Shown: piece by piece, positions 2,853 to 32,352 of the stretch | How positions within the stretch are numbered: the stretch's first letter is position 1 | Layout: the number at the start of each line of letters is the position of its first letter | Source of the DNA: a virus | Virus genome (UHGV): UHGV-0176217 | Length of the DNA stretch: 32,352 nt | Reading direction: 5' to 3' (one strand) | Made by a program: the position numbers and the translations under genes | The notes under the pieces: generated by a model | Database searches by the model: none | What the model saw: the letters and a program-made list of their open reading frames with translations, nothing else | Told to the model about the DNA's origin: nothing

Positions 2853-3128
2853 ATGAGTATCCGTATCGAGATAAATCATCAGTATGTAGTTACAAGCGAT
2901 CGCTACCAGTTCATTTTGCAGGAAAAGAAAGTGGCGACTGCTGGAAAAAATGAAGGTAGCGAATGGCTTGATACTGTCGGGTATTACCCGACGATTCAAA
3001 AACTGATTTCTGGTCTGGTGCTACATGACCTTTTAAATGGCGGTGCTGATAGTTTTGCGGCGTTGGGTGAGCAGGTCGAGCAGTTGGGACTGCAATGTCA
3101 GACCGCGTTTTGTGCTGATGGCCGTTGA
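2853..3128 (+). CDS. Hypothetical protein (P2 orf81/82 region)
   Basis: Strong AAGGAGA RBS; stop overlaps the A start. Confidence 0.6.
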   Translation: MSIRIEINHQYVVTSDRYQFILQEKKVATAGKNEGSEWLDTVGYYPTIQKLISGLVLHDLLNGGADSFAALGEQVEQLGLQCQTAFCADGR

Positions 3129-5409
3129 GACTCGGGGGCGTATTGCCCCCTCGCTAGCCCTGCCAATATCTAAGCGCACCGGCGATACTTTCGTTGGTGC
3201 TTATCCCTGGAATGCTCCCCGCGCTGCCATTGGCCGTGACAGACCCCTTACACGTGCCGAATTCCGTCAGGTGCAAGGTGTTTTATACCGGATTGACCGC
3301 CTGCCTTTCTTTCTTAAGACGTTGTTTACTTCCCGTTATAACTTCATTCGCCGCACAAAGAGCCCGCTCGGGGCGCTCTATTTCCTGAAAAACACCTTTG
3401 AGCGGAAGCTGTTGCCGCGTCTTGAGCGCGTTAACGAGCTGTGCGGGATGAATGAATCTGCGTCGATTGGTTTCTTGTCTGAGCATGACGAATATGCGCG
3501 CTTGCCTGATATGAATGACAAAGAGCTGAAAAAATTTGCGGCCAGAATTGCCGCGCAGCTCTGGCGTAAATACGAGGAACTCAGCGACGAATGGGCTGAG
3601 GCATTCGGCGGTAAAGAGACCCTTTTCACCGATGAGGCGCAGGTGCACATATATGGTCAGGTGGCTGGTGTTGCACGCGCGTTCAACTTAACCCCGCTCT
3701 ACTGGAAAAAATACCGTAAGGGTCAGATGACGATCCGCATGGCGTTTTCCGCTATTTCCCGTCTGATAAAAGATGATTGGTGGGTTAACCAGCTCAAGGC
3801 GCAGCGTATGCGCTGGCGTGAGGCGCTGCTTATCGCTGCCGGTGAAGTCAACAAAGACCGTTCACCTTACGCCAGCAAAATGGCGATCCGCGAGGTTCAC
3901 TCGCGCCGGCTGGCTAATCTCGAATACCTGAAATCCTGTGAGCTGGAAAACAAAGTTACCGGCGAACGTATCGACCTCATCAGTAAAGTCATGGGGAGTA
4001 TTTCAAACCCTGAAATACGCCGTATGGAGCTGATGAATACCATTGCCGGAATTGAACGCTATGCGGCCAGCGTTGGTGATGTGGGAATGTTTATCACGCT
4101 GACCACGCCGTCGAAGTATCACCCGACCCGACAGGTCGGCAAAGGTGACAGCAAAACGGTGCAGCTCAATCACGGCTGGAACGAAACCGCATTCACCCCT
4201 AAAAACGGCCAGCGCTATCTGTGCCGAATCTGGAGCCTGATGCGTACCGCTTTCAAAGATAACGATTTGGAAGTGTATGGGATGCGCGTTGTCGAGCCGC
4301 ACCACGACGGCACGCCACACTGGCATATGATGCTTTTTTGCAAACTCGGTCAGCGTAAAGCTATCAACGAAATTATGCGTCGTTATGCCCTCAAAGAGGA
4401 CGGACACGAAAAGGGCGCGGCAAAACAGCGCTTTGAGTCGCGTCACCTTAATCAGGGGGGCGCGGCGGGTTATATCGCCAAATACATTGCCAAAAATATC
4501 GACGGCTACGCGCTTGACGGTCAGCTCGATCACGATACCGGCAAACCTCTGAAAGATACGGCCGCAGCCGTAACCGCATGGGCGTCTACATGGCGTATCC
4601 CTCAGTTTAAACCGATTGGCCTCCCGACAATGGGCGCTTACCGCGAACTGCGTAAGCTGCCGCGCGGGGTGAGTATCGCCAGCGAGTTTGACGACCGTGT
4701 CGAGGCCGTCCGGGCTGCTGCAGATGAGGGGGAATTTGACCTGTACATCAGCGCGCAGGGTGGGGCAAACATGCCGCGTGATGCTCAGGTGGTCAGGGTC
4801 GCCCGTAAGGTGACGGATGAGGTAAACGAATACGAGGAGGATATCGAGAAAGTGGTCGGTATTTATGCCCCTCATCTTGGGGCGAGCCGCGTACATGTAA
4901 CCCGTACAGCGGAATGGCGCATAGTTCCAAAGGTTTTGGCCGTTGAGCCTTTGACCTTAAAAAGCGGCGCTGCCGCGCCTCGGAGTCCTGTCAATAACTG
5001 TGGAAAGCTCACCGACGGTGATACTCCAGTTATGACACCCACACCGTCTGAGCAAGCCGCAGCGGTGTTAAATCTGATTGAGCGCGGAGTTATCGGATGG
5101 AATGAGCCAGACGTCATGAAGGCGCTTAACGGTGCGTTAAGAGCTGGCATCCCTCGCAAAAATCGCCAGCAAAGAAGCAATGCGCTACTCAAAACGAGTG
5201 AGCAAGCTCCATCAGCCAGGATGACAAAACCAGAAAGGGATCGCGTGGCGAAAATTCGTTTCGATTTGGCTCAGGAGGGCATTACCCCGGAACGGTGGGA
5301 GCTCGAAGCGCTGGTGCGTGGGGCAACGGTGATTTATGGCGATAAAAAATTCAAATACGCGGCTGCTGATGAGTGGCCGGGATTCTCAATTCAAGAGGAG
5401 TGGAAATAA
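3118..5409 (+). CDS. A: Replication initiation endonuclease A (rolling-circle Rep, HUH superfamily)
   Basis: 763 aa from ATG at 3118 (MAVETRG...); HUH-like motif TPHWHMMLF; paired active-site tyrosines in GYIAKYIAKN; N-terminus matches P2 A as recalled. Confidence 0.9.
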   Translation: MAVETRGRIAPSLALPISKRTGDTFVGAYPWNAPRAAIGRDRPLTRAEFRQVQGVLYRIDRLPFFLKTLFTSRYNFIRRTKSPLGALYFLKNTFERKLLPRLERVNELCGMNESASIGFLSEHDEYARLPDMNDKELKKFAARIAAQLWRKYEELSDEWAEAFGGKETLFTDEAQVHIYGQVAGVARAFNLTPLYWKKYRKGQMTIRMAFSAISRLIKDDWWVNQLKAQRMRWREALLIAAGEVNKDRSPYASKMAIREVHSRRLANLEYLKSCELENKVTGERIDLISKVMGSISNPEIRRMELMNTIAGIERYAASVGDVGMFITLTTPSKYHPTRQVGKGDSKTVQLNHGWNETAFTPKNGQRYLCRIWSLMRTAFKDNDLEVYGMRVVEPHHDGTPHWHMMLFCKLGQRKAINEIMRRYALKEDGHEKGAAKQRFESRHLNQGGAAGYIAKYIAKNIDGYALDGQLDHDTGKPLKDTAAAVTAWASTWRIPQFKPIGLPTMGAYRELRKLPRGVSIASEFDDRVEAVRAAADEGEFDLYISAQGGANMPRDAQVVRVARKVTDEVNEYEEDIEKVVGIYAPHLGASRVHVTRTAEWRIVPKVLAVEPLTLKSGAAAPRSPVNNCGKLTDGDTPVMTPTPSEQAAAVLNLIERGVIGWNEPDVMKALNGALRAGIPRKNRQQRSNALLKTSEQAPSARMTKPERDRVAKIRFDLAQEGITPERWELEALVRGATVIYGDKKFKYAAADEWPGFSIQEEWK

Positions 5410-5873
5410 TGAGCAAAATCCATGAGTTAAAAATTGCACCTGAGCATTTTAACGCTGTGATATCTCAGGAAAAACGTGCTGAATTTCGTCTCAATAACCG
5501 CGATTATTCTAGCGGTGATATTCTCGGGTTGCATGAATGGGAACCGGTAAACGGATATACCGGGAAACGTGTATCAGTGAGGGTGACATACGTTACTGAT
5601 TTATCTGAATGGGCGGAAAATTATGTGATGCTGAGTTTTCAGTTAATGATGCCAGATGTCAAGTGCGGTATGTCCCTAATGAACTGGAAAGAGTTAAGCG
5701 AGAAGGGGCTTGTTTTCAGAATTAATCACGAAATTCTACACCCGTTAGGGCTGGCTATTGGATTTGAAACACTTAACGGCGTTTCGGGGGGGGCTTATGT
5801 CGCTTGTGATGGTGTCTGGCAATATTCCGACAAGCTGGTCGCAGATGCTAAAAAAAATGGGTGGTTAAAATGA
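5409..5873 (+). CDS. DUF3850 / ASCH-PUA-like domain protein with ~65 aa C-terminal extension
   Basis: N-terminus HELKI.PEHF.AV.S..K.AEFR.N.RD...GD.L.L.EWEP is the DUF3850 signature; start overlaps the A stop; occupies the tin/old position. Confidence 0.7.
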   Translation: MSKIHELKIAPEHFNAVISQEKRAEFRLNNRDYSSGDILGLHEWEPVNGYTGKRVSVRVTYVTDLSEWAENYVMLSFQLMMPDVKCGMSLMNWKELSEKGLVFRINHEILHPLGLAIGFETLNGVSGGAYVACDGVWQYSDKLVADAKKNGWLK

Positions 5874-6376: not shown

Positions 6377-6395
6377 GGCGAGGCGGGGATAGCAT
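6377..6395. other. P2/P4-type cos site (19-nt cohesive-end sequence)
   Basis: GGCGAGGCGGGGATAGCAT followed by TGCGCGCTGA; near-identical to the P2/P4 cohesive end GGCGAGGCGGGGAAAGCAC TGCGCGCTGA as I recall it. Confidence 0.55.
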
Positions 6396-6484
6396 TGCGC
6401 GCTGAGGGGTTTTAAATTTCATTTTTTTTAGTATTATCAAAAAGAATAATTCAGAATTATCTCAAAAAAGGCAAGGGGCACAAT

Positions 6485-7816
6485 ATGGTGATTAATGAAG
6501 TTAGACGGATAGGTAGTGGCGGTTTTGGTAATGTTGATTTAGTGCAAGATGTCCTTAGCGGAAAGCAATTCGCTAGGAAAACATTTTCTATAAATCAAGC
6601 TCAACCGCTGCCTCCTGATTTGGCAGAGAATGTAAAAAAAAGATTTATAAGAGAGGCAAACGTACAGTATAGACTTACGCATAAAAATATTGTACCTGTC
6701 CTTTTTAAAGATCTAAATAGTAACCCTCCATCTTTCCTTATGCCAGTAGCAGCATCTAGCCTTGATAAAGATATTGCGCAAAGTAGAAACTTGAATGGAT
6801 TATTTTTAAGAGCAATAATGGATATTTTGTCTGGACTCGAAGAATTGCACACGTTGCAAATTTATCATCGTGATCTCAAACCACAAAATGTGCTTAGATT
6901 TGATTCAAGTGAAGGTCCATATTACGCTATTAGCGACTTTGGCCTGATGTCAGTAAAAGATACTCAAATTTCAGCACTAACCCATACAGGTATGAAAATG
7001 GGTTCTGATTACTACACCGCACCTGAAATTGTTTCAGATCTTAGAAAAGCTAGTATTGCTTCAGATATTTATTCTTTGGGGTGTATACTGCATGACTTTG
7101 TAGGCACGGATGAAAGAATTCCTTGTGGTGAAATTAATAATGATTCGAGCGCATATGCGCATATTTTACGGGTTTGTACTCGTAGAGATCCTTCAAGAAG
7201 ATTTCCAAGTGTTGCAGCATTAAGGGATGCAATTCTTAGTATTGATCCTTCTACAGTAATACATCTCTCTGCTGAGGTTGGAACATATACTACAGCATTA
7301 GATAGTGACGCCGGAATTAATGTTGAAACATGGAGGGAAATAATCAATTTCGTAGAGGATAATATTGGACAAGAAAACTCCAAGGTGATATTTCAGCGTC
7401 TAACTTTAAACAGGATTAATGAGATAATCGCTCATGATACCACGCTAGCTTGTCGTCTTGGTGAAGCATATGGTCGTTGGGTTGCGGATGGAGTATTTTC
7501 ATTCGAACAGTGTGATGGGATTTGCACTCGTCTCGAACAATTTTTACAACTTCACGATTTGAACTGTAAAGCCGAAATTATTATAGCTATGCTTCTTATG
7601 GGAACGTCGCATAATCGTTGGTATGTCGAGAGACGCTTCATGAGCGTGGCAGGGCACGACATGACTCCAGAACTGGCTAAAAGGCTTGCTTTGGAAATGA
7701 GCATACTTGAGGGTAGAATGTGTGCAGCGGTGAGTCATCTCCAAAGATCAATTGGTGCCACACCTGATATGCTTCATCCTGAACTTTTCGCAATGATACA
7801 AAGAGTATGCCATTGA
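6485..7816 (+). CDS. Eukaryotic-like (Hanks-type) Ser/Thr protein kinase with ~170 aa C-terminal domain of unknown function
   Basis: Gly loop GSGGFGNV; FARK lysine; conserved Glu (REANVQY); catalytic loop YHRDLKPQNVL; DFG (ISDFGLM); APE (YTAPEIV); DIYSLGCIL; AT-rich gene; RBS AAGGGG. Confidence 0.85.
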   Translation: MVINEVRRIGSGGFGNVDLVQDVLSGKQFARKTFSINQAQPLPPDLAENVKKRFIREANVQYRLTHKNIVPVLFKDLNSNPPSFLMPVAASSLDKDIAQSRNLNGLFLRAIMDILSGLEELHTLQIYHRDLKPQNVLRFDSSEGPYYAISDFGLMSVKDTQISALTHTGMKMGSDYYTAPEIVSDLRKASIASDIYSLGCILHDFVGTDERIPCGEINNDSSAYAHILRVCTRRDPSRRFPSVAALRDAILSIDPSTVIHLSAEVGTYTTALDSDAGINVETWREIINFVEDNIGQENSKVIFQRLTLNRINEIIAHDTTLACRLGEAYGRWVADGVFSFEQCDGICTRLEQFLQLHDLNCKAEIIIAMLLMGTSHNRWYVERRFMSVAGHDMTPELAKRLALEMSILEGRMCAAVSHLQRSIGATPDMLHPELFAMIQRVCH

Positions 7817-8517
7817 TTAATAAATTTGCTTACACATCTCCGGGACCTAGAAGCCACAACCAAGACTCTATCTTGGTTGAGATTTTACCCAGCGCTGATT
7901 TGTTATGTGGCGTTGCGGATGGTGTCGGCGGGAATTTGGGGGGAGAAACAGCCTCTCAATTAGCACTGGACATTATTGCTGCGGCCATGCGTTCGGATAG
8001 TAGCATCTCTCTTCTCGAAGCCATAACCCGAGCTGATGAAGCGATCAAAGATGCTGCTCAGAAAGATGGAAAATTGGCTGGAATGGCAAGTACTGTGACT
8101 GTAACAAAGCTTATCGGGAATAAATTGATAGGAGCCAATTGTGGAGATTCTCGGACTTATCTATTAAGAGGAAGTGGCGTCAAACAACTTTCCTATGATC
8201 ACAGTGAAGTAGCTCGTCTACTACGTGAAGGTAAGCTGACGAAAGAGACTGCAGTTGATTACCCTCGTAAGAACATTCTTGATAGTGCCCTTGGTGCACA
8301 CAAGCCTCTACAAGTCCATGAATTTGAATGTAATTTACAGATAGGTGATAGAATAGCTTTGCTATCTGACGGGGTTTCGTCAGTTGTGAGCAAAAAAGAT
8401 TTCCGAGATCTTTCAGTGAAATATAATTCGTTAAATGAGTATGGTGCTAGTGTAATAGAGCTTGTTGAGAGTAGAGAGACTAGGGATAATTATTCATTGA
8501 TTATTTTTGAAATTTAG
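7807..8517 (+). CDS. PP2C-family (PPM) Ser/Thr phosphatase
   Basis: Motifs SHNQDS, ADGVGG, CGDSRTYL, LLSDGVSS; start overlaps the kinase stop by 10 nt. Confidence 0.85.
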   Translation: MPLINKFAYTSPGPRSHNQDSILVEILPSADLLCGVADGVGGNLGGETASQLALDIIAAAMRSDSSISLLEAITRADEAIKDAAQKDGKLAGMASTVTVTKLIGNKLIGANCGDSRTYLLRGSGVKQLSYDHSEVARLLREGKLTKETAVDYPRKNILDSALGAHKPLQVHEFECNLQIGDRIALLSDGVSSVVSKKDFRDLSVKYNSLNEYGASVIELVESRETRDNYSLIIFEI

Positions 8518-8529
8518 TTTTGTAATATA

Positions 8530-8558
8530 GGTGCGTTATTTAAAATGACGCACCTTTT
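8530..8558 (+). terminator. Intrinsic terminator after the kinase-phosphatase operon
   Basis: Stem GGTGCGT / ACGCACC with 11-nt loop, then TTTT. Confidence 0.5.
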
Positions 8559-8569
8559 CTCATTTTGTT

Positions 8570-9577
8570 TTAAATAGAATATTTTTCAAATTGTATTACA
8601 TCTTCTTGAAGCCAGTCGTTAATCTCTTTGAAACGCTCCTGCAATGGCGTCAGCTCGTTACGCACAAACACCCGCGCCACCTTCTCAACGTCACCCATTG
8701 AGCCGATGTTTTCCGGCTTGCCGCCCATCAGCTGAAACGGCACGCGGTGCGCATCGAGCAGGTCAGCGGCACTGACCTTTTTGATGTTGAAAAAATCATC
8801 CTTCGTGGCGACTTCACTCAACGGCACAATCTTGATCCCGTCTGGCTTTCCGTTGGGCGCGTAGAAAAACAGGTTCTTAAAATTCCCCAGCCCTTTTGAG
8901 TCGCGCATCGCGTTACGGAGCGATTCAACGTCGGTGCTACTCTGTGCCGCGTCGGTGACATACATGATATACCCCGCGTGCGCCCCGTTCTGGTAATACT
9001 TACGACGAAATAACGTGGCGGATTCATTCAGCCAGGCTGAATTGAGTGCGCTCAGGTATTCCGGCATCCCGTAAAGTTCCTGATTGATATCGGGCTCAAG
9101 CAGATGACACACCGAGCCGGGCGCGAACGGGTGCGGCTGGGTGTAGCTCGATACGTACCAGTAAACGCCATCCTCGACACCCCGGCGGGTGTATTTGGCC
9201 GGGGAGGTTTCCAGTTTTAATAGCTGGCCGGTGACGCTCATGCGCTTCTCAAGATAGCCGTTGGCAAAGACCAGATAATCGAGCACAAGACGGCTGAAAT
9301 CCTGACGCGACAGCAACGGGTGCGGAATGTAGGTGCTCGCCAGAATGTTACGCTTCACGTAAATCGGCGAGCTGTGGTGAACGGCGGCGCGCAGGCTTTT
9401 TGCCAGTCCCGAGAAATTGACCGGCGGCTCGTACCATTTCCCGTTATTGATGCACTCGACATAGTCGAGGATGTCGCGGCGATCCAGAACGGGGGACGGC
9501 TCACCAAAGGTAAACGCCTCCATTTTTTGCGGTGCGCTGGCGGTCATTGTGGCGGGTTTCTTCTGTCGTTTTTTCAT
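8570..9577 (-). CDS. Q: Portal protein (P2 gpQ-like)
   Basis: 335 aa from ATG at 9577, directly after the P stop; first in P-Q leftward operon order. Confidence 0.85.
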   Translation of the reverse strand: MKKRQKKPATMTASAPQKMEAFTFGEPSPVLDRRDILDYVECINNGKWYEPPVNFSGLAKSLRAAVHHSSPIYVKRNILASTYIPHPLLSRQDFSRLVLDYLVFANGYLEKRMSVTGQLLKLETSPAKYTRRGVEDGVYWYVSSYTQPHPFAPGSVCHLLEPDINQELYGMPEYLSALNSAWLNESATLFRRKYYQNGAHAGYIMYVTDAAQSSTDVESLRNAMRDSKGLGNFKNLFFYAPNGKPDGIKIVPLSEVATKDDFFNIKKVSAADLLDAHRVPFQLMGGKPENIGSMGDVEKVARVFVRNELTPLQERFKEINDWLQEDVIQFEKYSI

Positions 9578-9578
9578 C

Positions 9579-11348
9579 TTAGTTAATATCCAGAATTGAG
9601 GTTGATTGCATGCCGCTACCGGCGGAAAGTGGCTCATTTAACAGGGCGTGCATGGTCGCCCACGCAATATCCGCGTGGCTGGCCTCTTCGCTGCGGCTGG
9701 CCTCATAGGTGGCACTGCGCCCGCTGCTGGTCATGGTTTTACGAATCGCCATAAACGACTGCGTGATGTCGGTTGCACCGGCGTCATATTCCAGACACCC
9801 ACGTCGGATGGTGTCTTTCGCTTTCAGCACCATCGCGGTTTTCATTTCCGGCGTGTAGCGAATGGCGCGGGCTGCCGGAAAGAAGGAGCGCACGAGCTGG
9901 TAAACCCCCTGGCCGATGCCGGTTGCATCGATGCCGATATACTCGACGCAATATTTCTCTGTCAGCTCGCGGATAGCCTCGGCCTGCGTTGCAAAATCCA
10001 TCCCTTTCCACTGGTGACGCTCAAGGATGCGGAACTTGCCACCGGCAACCAGCGGCGGAGCCAGTACCGCACAGCCAGCACTGTCGCCGGTGTGTGACGG
10101 GTCATAGCCAATCCAGACCGGGCGCCAGTTAAACGGACGGTCAGAGAACGGTGCAAAGTCTTCCCATTCTTCCATCGCATCGACCATGCAGCGCTGCAGC
10201 TCCTCGAACGGAAATACAGACGCTTTATCGTCGACGAACTCGCACATGAAGAGGTTGCGAAAGTCGTCGGCGCTGTTTTCCTGTTTCAGCTGATCCAGAT
10301 TAAACAGCGTACATCCTCCGGCGAGGGCGTCCTCGATGGTGACAATCTGCCGCCACTGTCCGTCCGGGCATAACACCCCACCGGCGAGCGCCTTGTGACT
10401 GATATCGATGTCGACGCGCTCACTCGCGCTGATGCGTCCCCGGTTAAACAGCTCACCTGACCAGAACGGATACGCACCGTGTGCCAGCGTTGAGGGTGTT
10501 GAAAAGTAGGTGGTGCGCAGGTGGGACTGTGACGCCATCCCCGACGCCACTTTGCGCAGCCTCTGAAAGTTGGGGATCCAGAAGATTTCATCGACATACA
10601 GGTCGCCGTTGTGGCTCTGCGCGGTGTTGGAGTTTGTCCCGAGGAAAATCAGCTCTGCGCCGTTATTGCCGATGACAATCGGGTCGCCTGACAGGTCGAC
10701 GTCGACCATGCGTGCAAAGGCGATGATGTACTTTCGGAACACGTAAGCCTGCGTCTTACTGGCGGATAAAAATATCTGGTTTTGCCCGGTTTTGAGGGCG
10801 CGCAGCAATGACTCGCGGGCAAAGTAAAATGTCGCGCCAATCTGGCGTGATTTGAGGATGTGGCGAATACGGTGCGCGATACCGGCCTTGTGCCAGTTGA
10901 GCTGATACTCAAAGGACTGGTCGAGGAAAATCTCTTCCAGCTTTTCGATGGCCTCATCGCTGAAAAAATTCCGTTTCGGCTTACGGCGATCGCCCTTATT
11001 ACGGCTGGCAATACTGGGGTTTAAATCCACCTCGTTTCCGGTCTGGCCGTAGCGGTTGATGCGCGCGAATCGCTCCATCTGGCGCGACAAAAAATCAGCG
11101 ACCTTGAAGTCATGCGGTGTCAGGTCAGGCTTTGCATACAGCTGAATCAGGCGCGCCTCGAGCGTCGTTTCCACGCGGTTAAGCGGGGCGGTTTCCTCCC
11201 ACCCGTCGCGCTGTTTCCAGCTCTGCACGGTCGGGCGCTTGACCTGCAGCGTGTCGGCGATTTGTGGCACGGAAAATCCCTGCCAGAACAACAGACGCGC
11301 CTGTCGTCGCGGGTCATGTAAAAGGGAGAGGTCAGTCGAAATGGTCAT
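9579..11348 (-). CDS. P: Terminase large subunit (P2 gpP-like)
   Basis: ATG at 11348 (MTISTDLSLL...) with GAGG RBS; the ORF-track start at 11378 is TTG; N-terminus matches P2 P as recalled. Confidence 0.9.
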   Translation of the reverse strand: MTISTDLSLLHDPRRQARLLFWQGFSVPQIADTLQVKRPTVQSWKQRDGWEETAPLNRVETTLEARLIQLYAKPDLTPHDFKVADFLSRQMERFARINRYGQTGNEVDLNPSIASRNKGDRRKPKRNFFSDEAIEKLEEIFLDQSFEYQLNWHKAGIAHRIRHILKSRQIGATFYFARESLLRALKTGQNQIFLSASKTQAYVFRKYIIAFARMVDVDLSGDPIVIGNNGAELIFLGTNSNTAQSHNGDLYVDEIFWIPNFQRLRKVASGMASQSHLRTTYFSTPSTLAHGAYPFWSGELFNRGRISASERVDIDISHKALAGGVLCPDGQWRQIVTIEDALAGGCTLFNLDQLKQENSADDFRNLFMCEFVDDKASVFPFEELQRCMVDAMEEWEDFAPFSDRPFNWRPVWIGYDPSHTGDSAGCAVLAPPLVAGGKFRILERHQWKGMDFATQAEAIRELTEKYCVEYIGIDATGIGQGVYQLVRSFFPAARAIRYTPEMKTAMVLKAKDTIRRGCLEYDAGATDITQSFMAIRKTMTSSGRSATYEASRSEEASHADIAWATMHALLNEPLSAGSGMQSTSILDIN

Positions 11349-16187: not shown

Positions 16188-16320
16188 CGGCGACCTGAGT
16201 GCCGATATTCGCAGGCTTGAGCACGCGCTCACCGCCTGCGCGATAAAGGTCGAAACCATCAAAGACTGCCAGGATAAAATCGATGCAGAAAATGAAAAGC
16301 CTGCGCCAGGCACTCACTGA
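16030..16320 (+). CDS. lysC: o-spanin (Rz1-like lipoprotein, P2 LysC-like) embedded out of frame in lysB
   Basis: Signal peptide with lipobox-like LCAGC; Pro-rich mature part; nested in the +1 frame of lysB. Confidence 0.65.
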   Translation: MKTRICAAGIALICLMLCAGCTPAPAASPPVIVYNACPKVSLCPMPGSEPTTNGDLSADIRRLEHALTACAIKVETIKDCQDKIDAENEKPAPGTH

Positions 16321-16750
16321 CGCCGTACCACAGCTAAAAAACAACCCCGAAATGATGCGTATCTTTGCCGATGAGGGAAATATCGATGCGCGTCTCGCGG
16401 CCTCGCTGTCGCACGAAAAGAACTACACCCTGAATGTGATCGTCTGCGATTTTGTTGGCGACCCTGACCTGATTTTTGTGCCGGTGGCGGCATGGCTGCG
16501 AGAGAACCAGCCGGATATCTGCACGCTGGATGAGGGGCGCAAAAAGGGCTATCGATTCCAGATGGATTTAAACGACGGGGATAATGTTGATATCAGTATC
16601 AGCCTGCAACTGACCGAGCGCACCCTCGTCAGGGACGAAAACGGCGCGCTGCACGTTAGCTACGCGCCTGAGCCTCCATTACCCGAGCCGATGACGCGAC
16701 CGACTGAGCTGTATATCAATGGTGAGCTGGTGAGCAAATGGGATGAATGA
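16283..16750 (+). CDS. R: Tail completion protein R (P2 gpR-like)
   Basis: 155 aa; ...LNVIV.DF.GD.DL..VPV.AWLRENQPDI.T.DEG.KKG...PTELYINGELVSKWDE matches P2 R as recalled. Confidence 0.8.
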   Translation: MQKMKSLRQALTDAVPQLKNNPEMMRIFADEGNIDARLAASLSHEKNYTLNVIVCDFVGDPDLIFVPVAAWLRENQPDICTLDEGRKKGYRFQMDLNDGDNVDISISLQLTERTLVRDENGALHVSYAPEPPLPEPMTRPTELYINGELVSKWDE

Positions 16751-17324: not shown

Positions 17325-18374
17325 ATGTCTAACGATGATAAAACATTGAATTTATTCCCCATAGATTATCCATTTGAGACTTTATGTTCTAGGATGAAGT
17401 CCAATCCCATCAAACTAAAACTGAATCCAGACTTTCAAAGAAAGTACAAATGGGATCAGGACGGATGGCTGCGATCTTCAAAATTCATTGAATCTTGTTT
17501 AATGCGTATTCCTCTTCCATCTTGTTACTTTGCAGAAGATGATAGCGGCAATCATATTGTAATTGATGGTGTTCAGCGATTAACCACAATACAGAAATTT
17601 TTTGATGACGAGTTCGCTTTGGAGGGAATGACTACATTTAAAGAGCTTGAAGGGAAAAAGTTTTCTGAATTAGGATCTCTACGTTCAGAGTTAGAGTCGA
17701 CAACAATAAGATGCATTGTTCTAAGAAAAGAAAATCCCAAAAAATTAATAAGAGAGATATTTTCTAGACTCAATCAGGGGGCAGTTAAACTTTCTGACCA
17801 AGAAATAAGACATGCGTTATATCCGGGAGGGTTTGATGAATTATTAGAAGAGTTAGGTAATATTGATGCCATTAAAAATTTTGGTTTGGCGGAAACAACT
17901 ACAGTAAAAAGAGATAGTCGTGAGCCAGACGAACAAGTTTTGCGTTTTTTTGCATTTTATGAAGATAACTTTTTTGATTACTTTGATAGCTCCTTGAAAG
18001 AATTCTTGGATGATCATATGGAAAAATTTTCAGACTTAAAAGATGATGAACTGAATATTATGAGGGAGAGATTCAAAACATCATTATCTAAGTGTGAAAA
18101 AATATTTGGTGAAGATGTATTTACAAACCCTACAGTTAGGAGAAAACGTAAAGGGTTAGTTCATTATGACATTTTAATGCCTACAATTGGCAAGTTAAAT
18201 GATGATATTGTAAATGAAAAGTCCGAACAAATACGGAATGCTTGGTTTACTCTTTGTTCAAGTGCTGAGTTCAAAAAAACTTTATCAGGTGGGCTACAGA
18301 ATAAGAGTTCGGTGATGAAGCGTAGGGCTAGTTGGGTGGCACTTCTTAAGGAAGTTATTGATGGAAAATACTGA
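17325..18374 (+). CDS. DUF262 (ParB-like NTPase/nuclease domain) protein lacking a fused C-terminal HNH/DUF1524 domain
   Basis: DUF262 signature ...NPDFQRKYKW.......FIESCLMRIPLPS.YFAED..G.HIVIDGVQRLTTIQKFF; AAGGA RBS; strongly AT-rich. Confidence 0.8.
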   Translation: MSNDDKTLNLFPIDYPFETLCSRMKSNPIKLKLNPDFQRKYKWDQDGWLRSSKFIESCLMRIPLPSCYFAEDDSGNHIVIDGVQRLTTIQKFFDDEFALEGMTTFKELEGKKFSELGSLRSELESTTIRCIVLRKENPKKLIREIFSRLNQGAVKLSDQEIRHALYPGGFDELLEELGNIDAIKNFGLAETTTVKRDSREPDEQVLRFFAFYEDNFFDYFDSSLKEFLDDHMEKFSDLKDDELNIMRERFKTSLSKCEKIFGEDVFTNPTVRRKRKGLVHYDILMPTIGKLNDDIVNEKSEQIRNAWFTLCSSAEFKKTLSGGLQNKSSVMKRRASWVALLKEVIDGKY

Positions 18375-18939
18375 ATACTATGATGGATATCGTTCATTAT
18401 TTTTATCCTTAAAAGAAATTATTAAGGAGACGGAGCAACAGGCTATCCTTGAGGAAAATGAATTCTTCAATAAGAACATTAATTTTTTTGTTAAATCGTA
18501 TCTTATTACACTCTGCACTTATTTAGAGTCGTATTTGACTGAGGTTGCAACATGGCACTGCGATACCATCAATCGCAGGCTTAAAGCAGCCTGCTTGCCA
18601 CACAATTTTTTGCTTTGGCGAGTCAAAAAAGATGTTAAAGATAAGGAGTTGAAATATATAGATGCTGATTTAAAGGTTGATAAAAGTGAGGTGTCGGATA
18701 GCCTATCTGGTAATCCTTACAAGACGATTAAGGCATTTTCTTATTTGGGTGTTAATCTTTTGAATTCGGCGGAATTTAATGCGAATAAGGATGTTGTGAA
18801 TGCAGTGGTTGTAAAGAGAAATAACATTATTCATCATAACGACAATGCAAATGATATTAGTCTCACTGACGTAAGTGGTTATGTAGATCTGTTTGTATCC
18901 TATATGGCCGCGATAGATAATATGGTTTGTGGAAAATAA
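18361..18939 (+). CDS. Partner protein with C-terminal R-x4-H (HEPN-like) motif; putative RNase effector
   Basis: ATG at 18361 overlaps the upstream stop by 14 nt, AAGGA RBS; motif KRNNIIHH near the C-terminus; AT-rich. Confidence 0.6.
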   Translation: MENTEYYDGYRSLFLSLKEIIKETEQQAILEENEFFNKNINFFVKSYLITLCTYLESYLTEVATWHCDTINRRLKAACLPHNFLLWRVKKDVKDKELKYIDADLKVDKSEVSDSLSGNPYKTIKAFSYLGVNLLNSAEFNANKDVVNAVVVKRNNIIHHNDNANDISLTDVSGYVDLFVSYMAAIDNMVCGK

Positions 18940-18980: not shown

Positions 18981-19202
18981 ATCTGCTTTGGTAAGAGTTC
19001 GGAAAATAATTTTATATCATGATGAAATGTCTATGAGATTTATTTCATTTCTAAGTTTTGCTATTTGATAAATCCTTTATGTGGCTCTCATTAATCTAAT
19101 GGGATGAATTATACTGATATTTTAAAGCTGATAATTGTTGTTTCATCTCCCATAAAACTCCACTTGATTGCCACTAGCCTTTCCAGTCGGCATCCTTTCC
19201 AC

Positions 19203-19844
19203 ATGAATAATTTAAATTCTTTACAGGAAATCGCTCGGGCGATCCGCAACCTTATCCGCACCGGCATTGTGACCGACGTCGACCCCGTCGAGGGGCTTTG
19301 TCGTGTACAGACCGGCGGGATGCAAACCACCTGGCTTAACTGGCTGACCTGCCGCGCCGGCCGCTCGCGGGTGTGGTGGGCTCCTTCTGTTGGCGAGCAG
19401 GTGCTCATTCTTGCCATTGGTGGCGAGCTGGACACAGCCTTTGTGCTGCCCGGCATTTTCTCTGATGACCATCCTGCGCCGTCGGCCTCGTCCGATGCGT
19501 TTCACGTCACTTTTCCTGACGGGGTGGTTATCGAGTACGAACCCGAAAACGGGGCGCTCACCGTATCCGGTATTAAAACCGCCGACGTTACCGCGTCGGA
19601 GTCCATTACCGCCATCGTGCCGGTGGTGCTGGTGAAAGCCGAAACCCGCATTACCCTCGATACTCCCGAGGTGGTGTGTACCAACAAGCTCATCACCGGC
19701 ACGCTCGAAGTGAAAAAAGGCGGGACGATGTCGGGGAACATCGAGCACACCGAAGGGAAATTTACCTCAAACGGCGTGCAGGTCGATGCCCACGATCATG
19801 GTGGCGTGGAGCCGGGCGGAAACTGGACGAAGGGGGTCAAATGA
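19203..19844 (+). CDS. V: Baseplate spike / assembly protein V (P2 gpV-like)
   Basis: 213 aa from ATG at 19203; position before W; stop overlaps the W start. Confidence 0.85.
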   Translation: MNNLNSLQEIARAIRNLIRTGIVTDVDPVEGLCRVQTGGMQTTWLNWLTCRAGRSRVWWAPSVGEQVLILAIGGELDTAFVLPGIFSDDHPAPSASSDAFHVTFPDGVVIEYEPENGALTVSGIKTADVTASESITAIVPVVLVKAETRITLDTPEVVCTNKLITGTLEVKKGGTMSGNIEHTEGKFTSNGVQVDAHDHGGVEPGGNWTKGVK

Positions 19845-31104: not shown

Positions 31105-32352
31105 GTGCGCCGGGCATGGCGCGTAGCGCCGTGACTGGCGCTGTTCTTCAACTGTGGTGGCTGAAGAACGACTAAGAGGTGAAAGTCCTCCACACACCCG
31201 GTGAGGGGAAGTGTTAGCGGAAGGCAAGGGTGTTCATCGCGAGGTGAAATCTGAAGGAAGCCGGATGCAAAATGCTGGCCTGACGAACAGGAAGCGGTTA
31301 AGGCGGCGCAGCGGGGTAAGGTGGCATACATCACCAAAGCCCGATACTCACACGGAACGCTGTAACGTAGAGCCGACAGGCATAAGCAGGAAAGTCGCGC
31401 GAATTACCCCGGGAGAACTGCCGTCCTGCCAGTGTGCTACCGGCGTCGTAAGGTGCCGGGATGGGGCGGCAGAAGTCAGCCGACGCCGTAGTAGTGCTGC
31501 AAAACCGGCAGCATGAAGGGCCGAACATGATTAACCGTGATTAGGACATCCGAACCCGATGATGATTAATGAAGCACAAGCGCAGGCAACTGCGGCCAGC
31601 GGCAGAGGAGACGGACGGTATCCGTCAGGGCTGCATGATGGCGCTGAAATCAGCACGGCGGCGGGTGGGCAAACGAAAGCGGAAGTGCCGCTGACGATGG
31701 AAGCGGTGATAACGAGAGAAAACCTGATGCTGGCTTATCAGCGCGTGGTGGAAAACAAAGGCGCGGCGGGGGTGGATAACCTCAGCGTGGCGGAGTTGAA
31801 ACCGTGGCTGAAGAAGAACTGGCGCAGTGTCAGGCAGGCATTGATTGACGGAAACTACCAGCCGCGGGCAATACGCCGGATGGATATCCCGAAGCCGGAT
31901 GGCGGCGTGAGAACCTTAGGCATCCCGACGGTGGTGGACAGGCTTATCCAGCAGGCGATTGCGCAGCAGTTAAGTGCCATCGTGGACAAAAGCTTCTCAG
32001 ACTCCAGCTACGGCTTCCGGCCGGGGCGCAACGCATGGCAGGCGGTGCAACAGGCACAGCGTTACATACGGGGCGGCAAACGGTGGGTGGTGGATATGGA
32101 TCTGGAGAAGTTCTTTGACCGGGTGGATCACAGGCTCCTGATGACGCGTCTGGCCAGAACGATAAAGGACAGGCGGGCATGCCGCAGGGCGGCCCGCTGT
32201 CGCCGTTACTGTCGAACATCCTGCTGGATGAACTGGATAAAGAACTGGAGCGTCGTTGACACAGCTTCTGCCGCTACGCAGACGACTGCAACATCAACGT
32301 AAGCAGCCGGAAAGCGGGCGACCATCTGCTGAAGAACATCAGGGCGTTCGTG
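31105..32352 (+). mobile_element. Group II intron, 5' part (ribozyme domains then intron-encoded protein), truncated by the window edge
   Basis: Starts GTGCG a few nt after the terminator T-run; ~450 nt of GC-rich structured non-coding sequence, then the RT ORF. Confidence 0.6.
31559..32352 (+). pseudogene. Group II intron reverse transcriptase/maturase, disrupted and partial
   Basis: RT motifs ...ENLMLAYQRVVENKGAAGVDN..., PKPDGGVRTLGIPTVVDRLIQQA, YGFRPGRNAWQA, then a frame change near 32170-32180 (next frame reads MPQGGPLSPLLSNILLDELDKELERR), an in-frame TGA at 32257-32259, then HSFCRYADDCNINV... Confidence 0.65.

Follow-up and report, generated by a model that had tools for sequence, protein, structure and literature searches.

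The subject of this analysis is the C-terminal tail (residues ~263-443) of a Ser/Thr kinase encoded in UHGV virus genome UHGV-0176217, a stretch of 32,352 nucleotides (the window) that was identified as a P2-like prophage with 99.9% identity to Escherichia coli KV7 over the part tested. The tail is a real, independently folding domain that is specific to one kinase family: it was found only fused to this kinase, the kinase gene was practically always followed by a gene for a PP2C phosphatase, and the two genes travel together from one mobile element or defence island to another. We consider the chances about even that the tail is the defining domain of a mobile two-gene kinase/PP2C conflict module, likely anti-phage, in which it acts as a protein-binding platform.

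The limits of the tail were taken from an AlphaFold2 model of the full-length protein, in which the last helix of the kinase fold comprised residues 243-251 (end of the fold at ~251-255), the predicted local distance difference test score (pLDDT) fell to 73-81 in the blocks covering residues 251-270, and the first tail helix comprised residues 263-273, which places the start of the tail at position ~7271. An earlier note on this DNA, made from the letters alone, had let the catalytic domain run to about residue 270 and the tail begin at position 7300; both limits lie further upstream in the model. The same note had described the tail as helical, which held: residues 263-441 form 11 helices, and the tail modelled alone with 40 homologues reached a pLDDT of 95.6 and a predicted template modelling score (pTM) of 0.91. 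The structure prediction and Foldseek comparison that the note had proposed were thereby carried out, with a confident helical solenoid as the result and no match among viral structures (BFVD) at E ≤0.001. The pTM of the full-length model was 0.59 though both domains were confident, and the relative orientation of the two domains is therefore not fixed. The model has the alpha-alpha solenoid fold of the ARM/HEAT superfamily; at the level of sequence, no Pfam ARM/HEAT match and no internal repeat was detectable, and identity to eukaryotic ARM/HEAT solenoids (She4p, Efr3, beta-catenin, importins) was 5-13%. Since the likeness exists at fold level only, homology cannot be claimed. Alignment of four helical units with hhalign gave at best 38% probability over 12 columns, which is not significant, and internal ARM-like repeats, considered for W283/W332/W379 (~48 residues apart), were rejected as the Trp residues lie at different positions within their helices. 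On the model, the tail would have an alpha-solenoid fold of the kind typical of protein-binding modules, and Vps15/PIK3R4, with its kinase-plus-HEAT architecture, is a point of comparison for a kinase with a solenoid tail.

Family searches were performed with residues 271-443 or 258-443 as query. No model matched the tail in Pfam (residues 271-443 at E ≤0.1), PADLOC, NCBIfam or PHROGs, and a search of the tail profile against PDB sequences gave chance-level matches only (best E 0.39 and 0.83). The domain appears to have been unclassified until now, being without a Pfam, NCBIfam or PHROGs model. The earlier statement that the region holds no nameable motif was thus right for these databases, PDB sequences and BFVD included, and wrong for the family itself, which has motifs of its own (F338xF340xxC343-D344 and G373-TSHNRWYVER-xF385). 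A tail-only homology search with a word index returned 0 matches, not even the query itself, which is a limitation of the index; full-length and exhaustive profile searches recovered the family. The full-length search gave 833 kinase homologues, the best 120 of which were ~435-472 amino acids (aa) long and 47-100% identical, nearly all spanning 96-100% of the query. Exhaustive searching with the tail profile gave 365 cluster representatives of 1.84 billion at E ≤0.001. Every full-length match (~425-450 aa) had the kinase-plus-tail layout with the tail at ~255-445, so that the domain is confined to this kinase family; the shorter matches look like gene fragments. The pattern [ML]GTxHNRWY was also scanned over 185,579 species genomes, and all 39 loci found encode this family with the tail fused to the kinase. 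Represented among them are Alpha-, Beta- and Gammaproteobacteria, Campylobacterota, Bacteroidota, Gemmatimonadota, Verrucomicrobiota, Synergistota and one archaeal metagenome-assembled genome (MAG).

Conservation was analysed in an alignment of 40 sequences and, for residue counts, in 238 sequences covering the tail domain. In the 40-sequence alignment the tail motifs were W283, W332, F338-x-F340-x-x-C343-D344-G, L370-x-x-G373-T-S-H-N-R-W-Y-V-E-R-x-F385, A398-x-R400-x-x-x-E404, C413, H418-L-x-x-S422-I423, H431-P432 and C442. Within the signature motif H376 was present in 234/238, N377 in 233/238, R378 in 238/238 and V381 in 231/238 sequences, outside it R400 in 228/238 and H431 in 219/238, and the polar motifs stayed unchanged all the way from Proteobacteria to Bacteroidota and Synergistota. 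Among the 173 residues at 271-443 there are 6 Cys and 7 His (7.5%), with C343, H376 and H431 nearly invariant, which contradicts the earlier description of the region as Cys/His-poor. C413 (7721-7723) and C442 (7808-7810) were both present in 141 and both absent in 96 sequences, with one discordant case; the two could be a coupled pair (contact, redox, metal) or could simply mark two clades.

The two halves of the tail differ in rate. Mean column identity was 0.69 for kinase residues 1-222, 0.45 (0.36-0.46) for tail residues 263-330 and 0.59 for residues 331-443; mean protein distances were 0.91 for the kinase domain (1-255), 2.76 and 1.17 for the two tail regions and 1.46 for the PP2C, and no other part of the cassette varies nearly as much as residues 263-330. 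The ratio of nonsynonymous to synonymous substitution rates (dN/dS), determined against Raoultella/Klebsiella orthologues, was 0.043-0.044 for the kinase core, 0.044-0.047 for residues 331-443 and ~0.11 for residues 256-330; for the PP2C it was 0.12 (Raoultella only). No signal of diversifying selection was seen by dN/dS in any region (kinase, tail halves, PP2C). The tail is coding and under purifying selection and is therefore not a chance open reading frame (ORF). Judged by these rates, it is not a fast-evolving sensor, its C-terminal half being as constrained as the kinase core. The earlier proposal of a phage-sensing or targeting domain is accordingly divided: a family-specific domain is present and, given its fold together with the location in a P2 defence hotspot (described below), it is reasonable to suppose that it regulates or targets within a conflict system; nothing points to phage sensing by the domain itself.

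The catalytic part was identified as a Hanks-type Ser/Thr kinase by a Pfam Pkinase (PF00069) profile match above the gathering score, confined to residues 5-222, and by a complete set of catalytic motifs (G10xGxxG15, K32, E57, H128-R-D130, N135, D151-F-G153, A179-P-E181 and R239), the subdomain XI Arg included. The motifs were invariant in the 40-sequence alignment, and the kinase is therefore predicted to be active; S163 and T166 of the activation segment were likewise invariant. The fold is closest to those of PpkA and PknB. Between the beta3 lysine and helix alphaC lies a family-specific, nearly invariant insert, T33-F34-x-x-N37-Q38 ... N49 (residues 33-56, positions ~6581-6652 of the window).

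The second gene of the cassette, which the earlier note had missed, is an obligate partner. It overlaps the end of the kinase gene by 10 nt, and the two genes are therefore translationally coupled. The metal-binding motifs of the PP2C were found by direct reading (D20, D38-G, G-D113-S-R, D188-G, D227-N), and with all metal-binding Asp motifs readable the phosphatase is intact, no catalytic residue being lost in either enzyme. Profile matches were Pfam PP2C_2 (4.6e-11) and NCBIfam Stp1_PP2C (6.5e-49, under the model cut-off), and PADLOC gave zero model matches. Of the 39 genome loci, 38 had a PP2C ORF of ~235 aa directly beside the kinase gene, 37 of these with both genes on one strand and many with a start-stop overlap of 4-10 nt; in the sole locus lacking it, a 1.5-kb contig, the sequence stops within the kinase gene. 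In a single case among the 38, a Flammeovirgaceae MAG (L011, 6487-7206), the PP2C gene lies on the opposite strand and abuts the kinase stop, which may be an inversion or a misassembly. All-against-all clustering of the flanking ORFs of the 39 loci revealed no third conserved gene, and the slot at 6403-8560 contains no second kinase.

In the window the cassette occupies a slot directly after a P2-type cos core at 6377-6395, with two mismatches to the P2 cos sequence; the core pattern gave 0 matches in 100 shuffles. The cargo lies between cos and the portal gene and thus on the side of cos that faces portal gene Q. The tin and old genes of P2 itself are on the gene A side, and given that placement the cassette would be the leftmost part of the linear genome as packaged. 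Other P2-like prophages are homologous only up to ~6402, right after cos. With 257 other E. coli genomes the homology is confined to the P2 flanks, and a single genome has the cargo; at megablast level the cassette was found in one of 5426 complete E. coli genomes. Its guanine-cytosine (GC) content is 0.42-0.44 vs ~0.56 for the phage backbone. In the 80-bp leader 5' of the kinase gene a consensus sigma-70 promoter was looked for and none was found. The gpA-cos-gpQ region of P2-like prophages is a documented anti-phage defence hotspot (Rousset et al. 2022, PMC9122126; PMC13586616), and the kinase and PP2C genes are located as its cargo is, as variable genes between gene A and portal gene Q and adjacent to cos.

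Mobility of the pair was seen by comparison with a Raoultella planticola chromosome (L002, 5164-7260), which gave one continuous 80%-identical DNA match at 6406-8515 and flanks without homology; the match is limited to the leader and the two genes, and the pair therefore moves as a unit. In Klebsiella and Raoultella the pair adjoins Hachiman HamA/HamB, and in one other contig an LmuB_C (Lamassu) gene. In V. cholerae the cassette shares an island with a WCX regulator and a protein-primed PolB gene. It was also found on three plasmids (8-16 kb) of Acinetobacter, and in the one inspected it stands beside a BrnT/BrnA pair. A Bacteroidota variant (P0108) occurred in 326 blocks of the assembly collection (hundreds of contigs); in the four metagenome contigs inspected (L043-L046, gene 8001-9332) the cassette is part of a CTnDOT-like conjugative element, with genes for ORF6N, RadC and ArdA (anti-restriction) immediately ahead of it and the tra operon behind, a position compatible with cargo defence and also with an establishment or addiction function. 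The commonest family among the nearest neighbours (134 in the genome loci) was that of the integrases, with 4 members. Coordinates of the features are collected in Table 1.

Table 1. Features of the kinase/PP2C cassette and its surroundings in the window (positions from the first letter of the stretch; residue counts refer to 238 sequences).
Feature	Position	Strand	Remark
Replication gene A (gpA)	3037-5409		
DUF3850 gene	5373-5873		
P2-type cos core, GGCGAGGCGGGGATAGCAT	6377..6395	+	Upstream edge of cargo slot
Kinase/PP2C cassette (AT-rich leader, kinase gene, PP2C gene)	6406..8515	+	
Kinase ORF, 443 aa, WP_029392161.1	6485..7816	+	Annotated Ser/Thr kinase in E. coli KV7
Hanks-type Ser/Thr kinase catalytic domain, residues 1-255	6485..7249	+	
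Interdomain linker, residues 256-262	7250..7270	+	Lower-confidence stretch
Variable N-terminal half of tail, residues 263-330	7271..7474	+	~5 helices
Conserved C-terminal half of tail, residues 331-443	7475..7813	+	~6 helices, pLDDT >90
C343-D344 motif	7511..7516	+	Helix start; C 236/238, D 238/238
Signature motif G373-T-S-H-N-R-W-Y-V-E-R-R-F385	7601..7639	+	
PP2C phosphatase ORF, 236 aa, WP_029392160.1	7807..8517	+	10-nt overlap with kinase stop
Terminator-like hairpin	8529..8555	+	12-bp stem and T-run; closes cassette before portal gene
Portal gene	8570-9637	minus	

For the mechanism, KKP, a prophage system and the one kinase/phosphatase defence module to have been characterised, was used as a guide: its kinases are toxic because they broadly phosphorylate essential host proteins, its PP2C is the antitoxin, the C-terminal domains of the kinases are needed for toxicity, and defence is triggered when a phage replication protein inhibits the phosphatase, not by way of the kinase tails (Guo et al. 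2024, PMC11341870). By analogy, the pair described here would be a phosphorylation-based conflict module of the toxin/antitoxin (TA) type, most probably anti-phage, in which the kinase would phosphorylate host (or phage) proteins once the PP2C stopped keeping the kinase and its targets dephosphorylated, and the tail would be a platform for protein binding by which the kinase is gated or directed. The conserved C-terminal half may bind a conserved partner, for which the cognate PP2C, the kinase's own activation segment (S163/T166) and a conserved host substrate are candidates; this half is invariant across phyla, so the partner should be equally conserved, and at that face one would hardly expect a variable phage protein. 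The fast-evolving N-terminal half (263-330) might tune specificity. Because the KKP trigger acts on the phosphatase, a phage trigger here would more likely act via the phosphatase, or via the kinase/phosphatase balance, than on the conserved face of the tail.

Several observations weigh against this reading. The orientation of kinase and tail is predicted without confidence (the pTM of 0.59 given above), and for the polar cluster C343, D344, H376, N377, R378 and R400 a catalytic or small-ligand site is as conceivable as a protein-binding surface. Most immediate neighbours in the 39 loci are ordinary or unannotated genes, with only a handful of known defence genes among them. No member of the family was found in 50,697 GenBank phage genomes; of 2.9 million IMG/VR contigs 3 had one, among them a contig of the prophage type described here, and no paper naming or experimentally testing any family member was found. 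If the cassette should prove to have no phenotype, the finding would be an unannotated accessory domain only.

Among the other explanations, docking or autoinhibition is a tentative possibility: the conserved half of the tail would hold the PP2C, or clamp the activation segment, and the kinase would stay off until the complex is disturbed. This would agree with the strict co-occurrence with the PP2C and the translational coupling, and the invariant basic or polar residues H376, N377, R378 and R400 would suit a phospho-peptide site; a fixed intramolecular clamp is not what a pTM of 0.59 indicates. Distances of the C-terminal tail half and the PP2C were correlated (r 0.76, and 0.48 as partial r with the kinase domain taken into account), although such a mirror-tree correlation is largely shared ancestry and weak evidence. 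One database protein (P0124) reads tail and PP2C as a single polypeptide, but its contig has a fragmented kinase gene, so that a frameshift or pseudogene is possible; with the kinase gene split, this kinase-tail-PP2C fusion was downgraded as Rosetta-stone evidence and was not relied on.

It is doubtful, in our judgement, that the pair serves no defence at all and is an addiction or maintenance module, or a regulator of the life cycle of its element, with the tail targeting a host nucleoid or replication protein. Carriage on small non-mobilisable plasmids beside another TA pair, in a conjugative element beside an ArdA anti-restriction gene and in prophages would fit such a function, as would the dual role of KKP, which also controls Pf lysogeny (PMC11341870). 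Against it stand the chromosomal islands beside Hachiman and Lamassu, where the flanks read show no obvious mobile backbone, and the strong enrichment of the P2 slot for validated defence systems (PMC9122126, PMC13586616); addiction or life-cycle roles and defence are not mutually exclusive.

A tail that acts as an enzyme or a small-ligand receptor through its Cys-Asp/His-Asn-Arg residues (thiol/redox switch, metal site or nucleotide pocket), and so makes the kinase ligand-gated, appears unlikely. For this speak the polar and potentially catalytic nature of the invariant residues (C343, D344, H376, N377, R378), the joint presence or absence of C413/C442 in 237/238 sequences and the enrichment of the tail in Cys and His; as a ligand- or redox-gated switch, a candidate Cys-Asp/His-Asn-Arg/Arg pocket and C413-C442 might bind a phospho-segment, a metal or a small molecule. 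If this were true, the cassette would be a self-contained kinase switch and a new anti-phage/mobile-element conflict family ranging from Proteobacteria to Bacteroidota. That the tail is a direct phage sensor, turning the kinase on when a phage protein binds it during infection, is improbable: alpha-solenoids are common protein-recognition modules, the gene is in a defence hotspot (PMC9122126) and the variability peak at 263-330 would fit a specificity surface, but no diversifying selection was seen (dN/dS 0.11 for 256-330 and 0.045 for 331-443), the tail motifs are invariant across phyla, the KKP trigger binds the phosphatase, and members occur in hosts with very different phages (Bacteroidota, Vibrio, Synergistota).

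Other parts of the window were also annotated. The gene at 5373-5873, 3' of replication gene A, contains DUF3850 (ASCH-like, 3.4e-19) and DUF7415 and is kept in many P2-like prophages, unlike the adjoining cargo. A second AT-rich cargo island (GC 0.34-0.37) was found at 17325-18939 between the tail gene gpR (16283-16750) and the spike gene gpV (19104-19844); it encodes a 349-aa GmrSD_N/DUF262 protein (PADLOC NsnA 6.6e-80, PD-T4-2_A 9.5e-43), whose gene is overlapped by that of a 193-aa HEPN_RiboL-PSP protein, and from these matches it is probably a second defence system of the same prophage. A reverse transcriptase (RT) domain is encoded by an ORF at the window's right end, 31559-32302 (RVT_1 2.1e-19, PADLOC generic RT 1.5e-48). 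Models of homing endonucleases and DRTs matched this ORF more weakly, and candidates for it are a group II intron, a retron and a DRT-type RT.

The cassette was compared with known kinase and phosphatase systems; a literature search on the accession and on kinase/PP2C defence systems yielded only KKP and TerY-P. The pair is not a member of the housekeeping Stk1/PknB-Stp1/PstP systems: it resembles them in a kinase fold near PpkA/PknB and a PP2C nearest the Stp1/IreP model, but has no PASTA or transmembrane part, is distributed sporadically and on mobile elements, and its NCBIfam scores are far under the equivalog cut-offs (88 vs 450; 166 vs 230). Among defence kinases, Stk2 is said to have been described by Depardieu and co-workers in 2016 as an anti-phage kinase that phosphorylates host proteins. 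PD-T4-6 is a single-gene defence whose Ser/Thr kinase is of eukaryotic-like type (Vassallo et al. 2022, PMC9519451). Both defend against phages by phosphorylating proteins of the host. The PADLOC models of PD-T4-6 (best 6.7e-32) and Stk2 (1.1e-22) matched the kinase within residues ~6-251, with 0 matches in the tail; both systems are single genes without an obligate PP2C, whereas the cassette has one, and its kinase gives no full-length match to either hidden Markov model. The TerY-P triad, as far as it is summarized in PMC10542128 (after Anantharaman et al. 2012), consists of a TerY vWA protein, a PP2C and a kinase with a C-terminal zinc ribbon. As in that summary, kinase and PP2C are paired here in conflict-system neighbourhoods, but a TerY-like vWA gene or another third conserved gene is absent and the tail is a helical solenoid instead of a zinc ribbon.

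By its logic the pair would be a relative of KKP, which is composed of the PfpC phosphatase, the PfkB kinase-FHA and the PfkA kinase-CSD and occurs in Pf, P2, P4 and Mu-like prophages (PMC11341870). Shared features are a Hanks-type kinase with a PP2C on prophages, the P2 gpA-portal slot included, and kinases with non-catalytic C-terminal domains. The arrangement differs: KKP has three genes in the order phosphatase-kinase-kinase and CSD/FHA tails, whereas the cassette has two in the order kinase-phosphatase, one kinase and then the PP2C, and an unrelated, all-helical solenoid tail. CSD (PF00313) and FHA (PF00498) are beta folds; the tail has no Pfam match to them and its model is all-helical. 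The tail domain deserves a family entry of its own, and its five or six invariant polar residues and its division into a variable and a conserved half make it tractable to ask what keeps a Hanks kinase inactive, and what frees it, in a toxin/antitoxin-like setting. Very few systems of kinase-based bacterial immunity have been characterised (Stk2, PD-T4-6, KKP), and the cassette would join them as a compact kinase/PP2C architecture of two genes that has an unclassified domain of its own and is spread over many phyla on plasmids, prophages, defence islands and conjugative elements.

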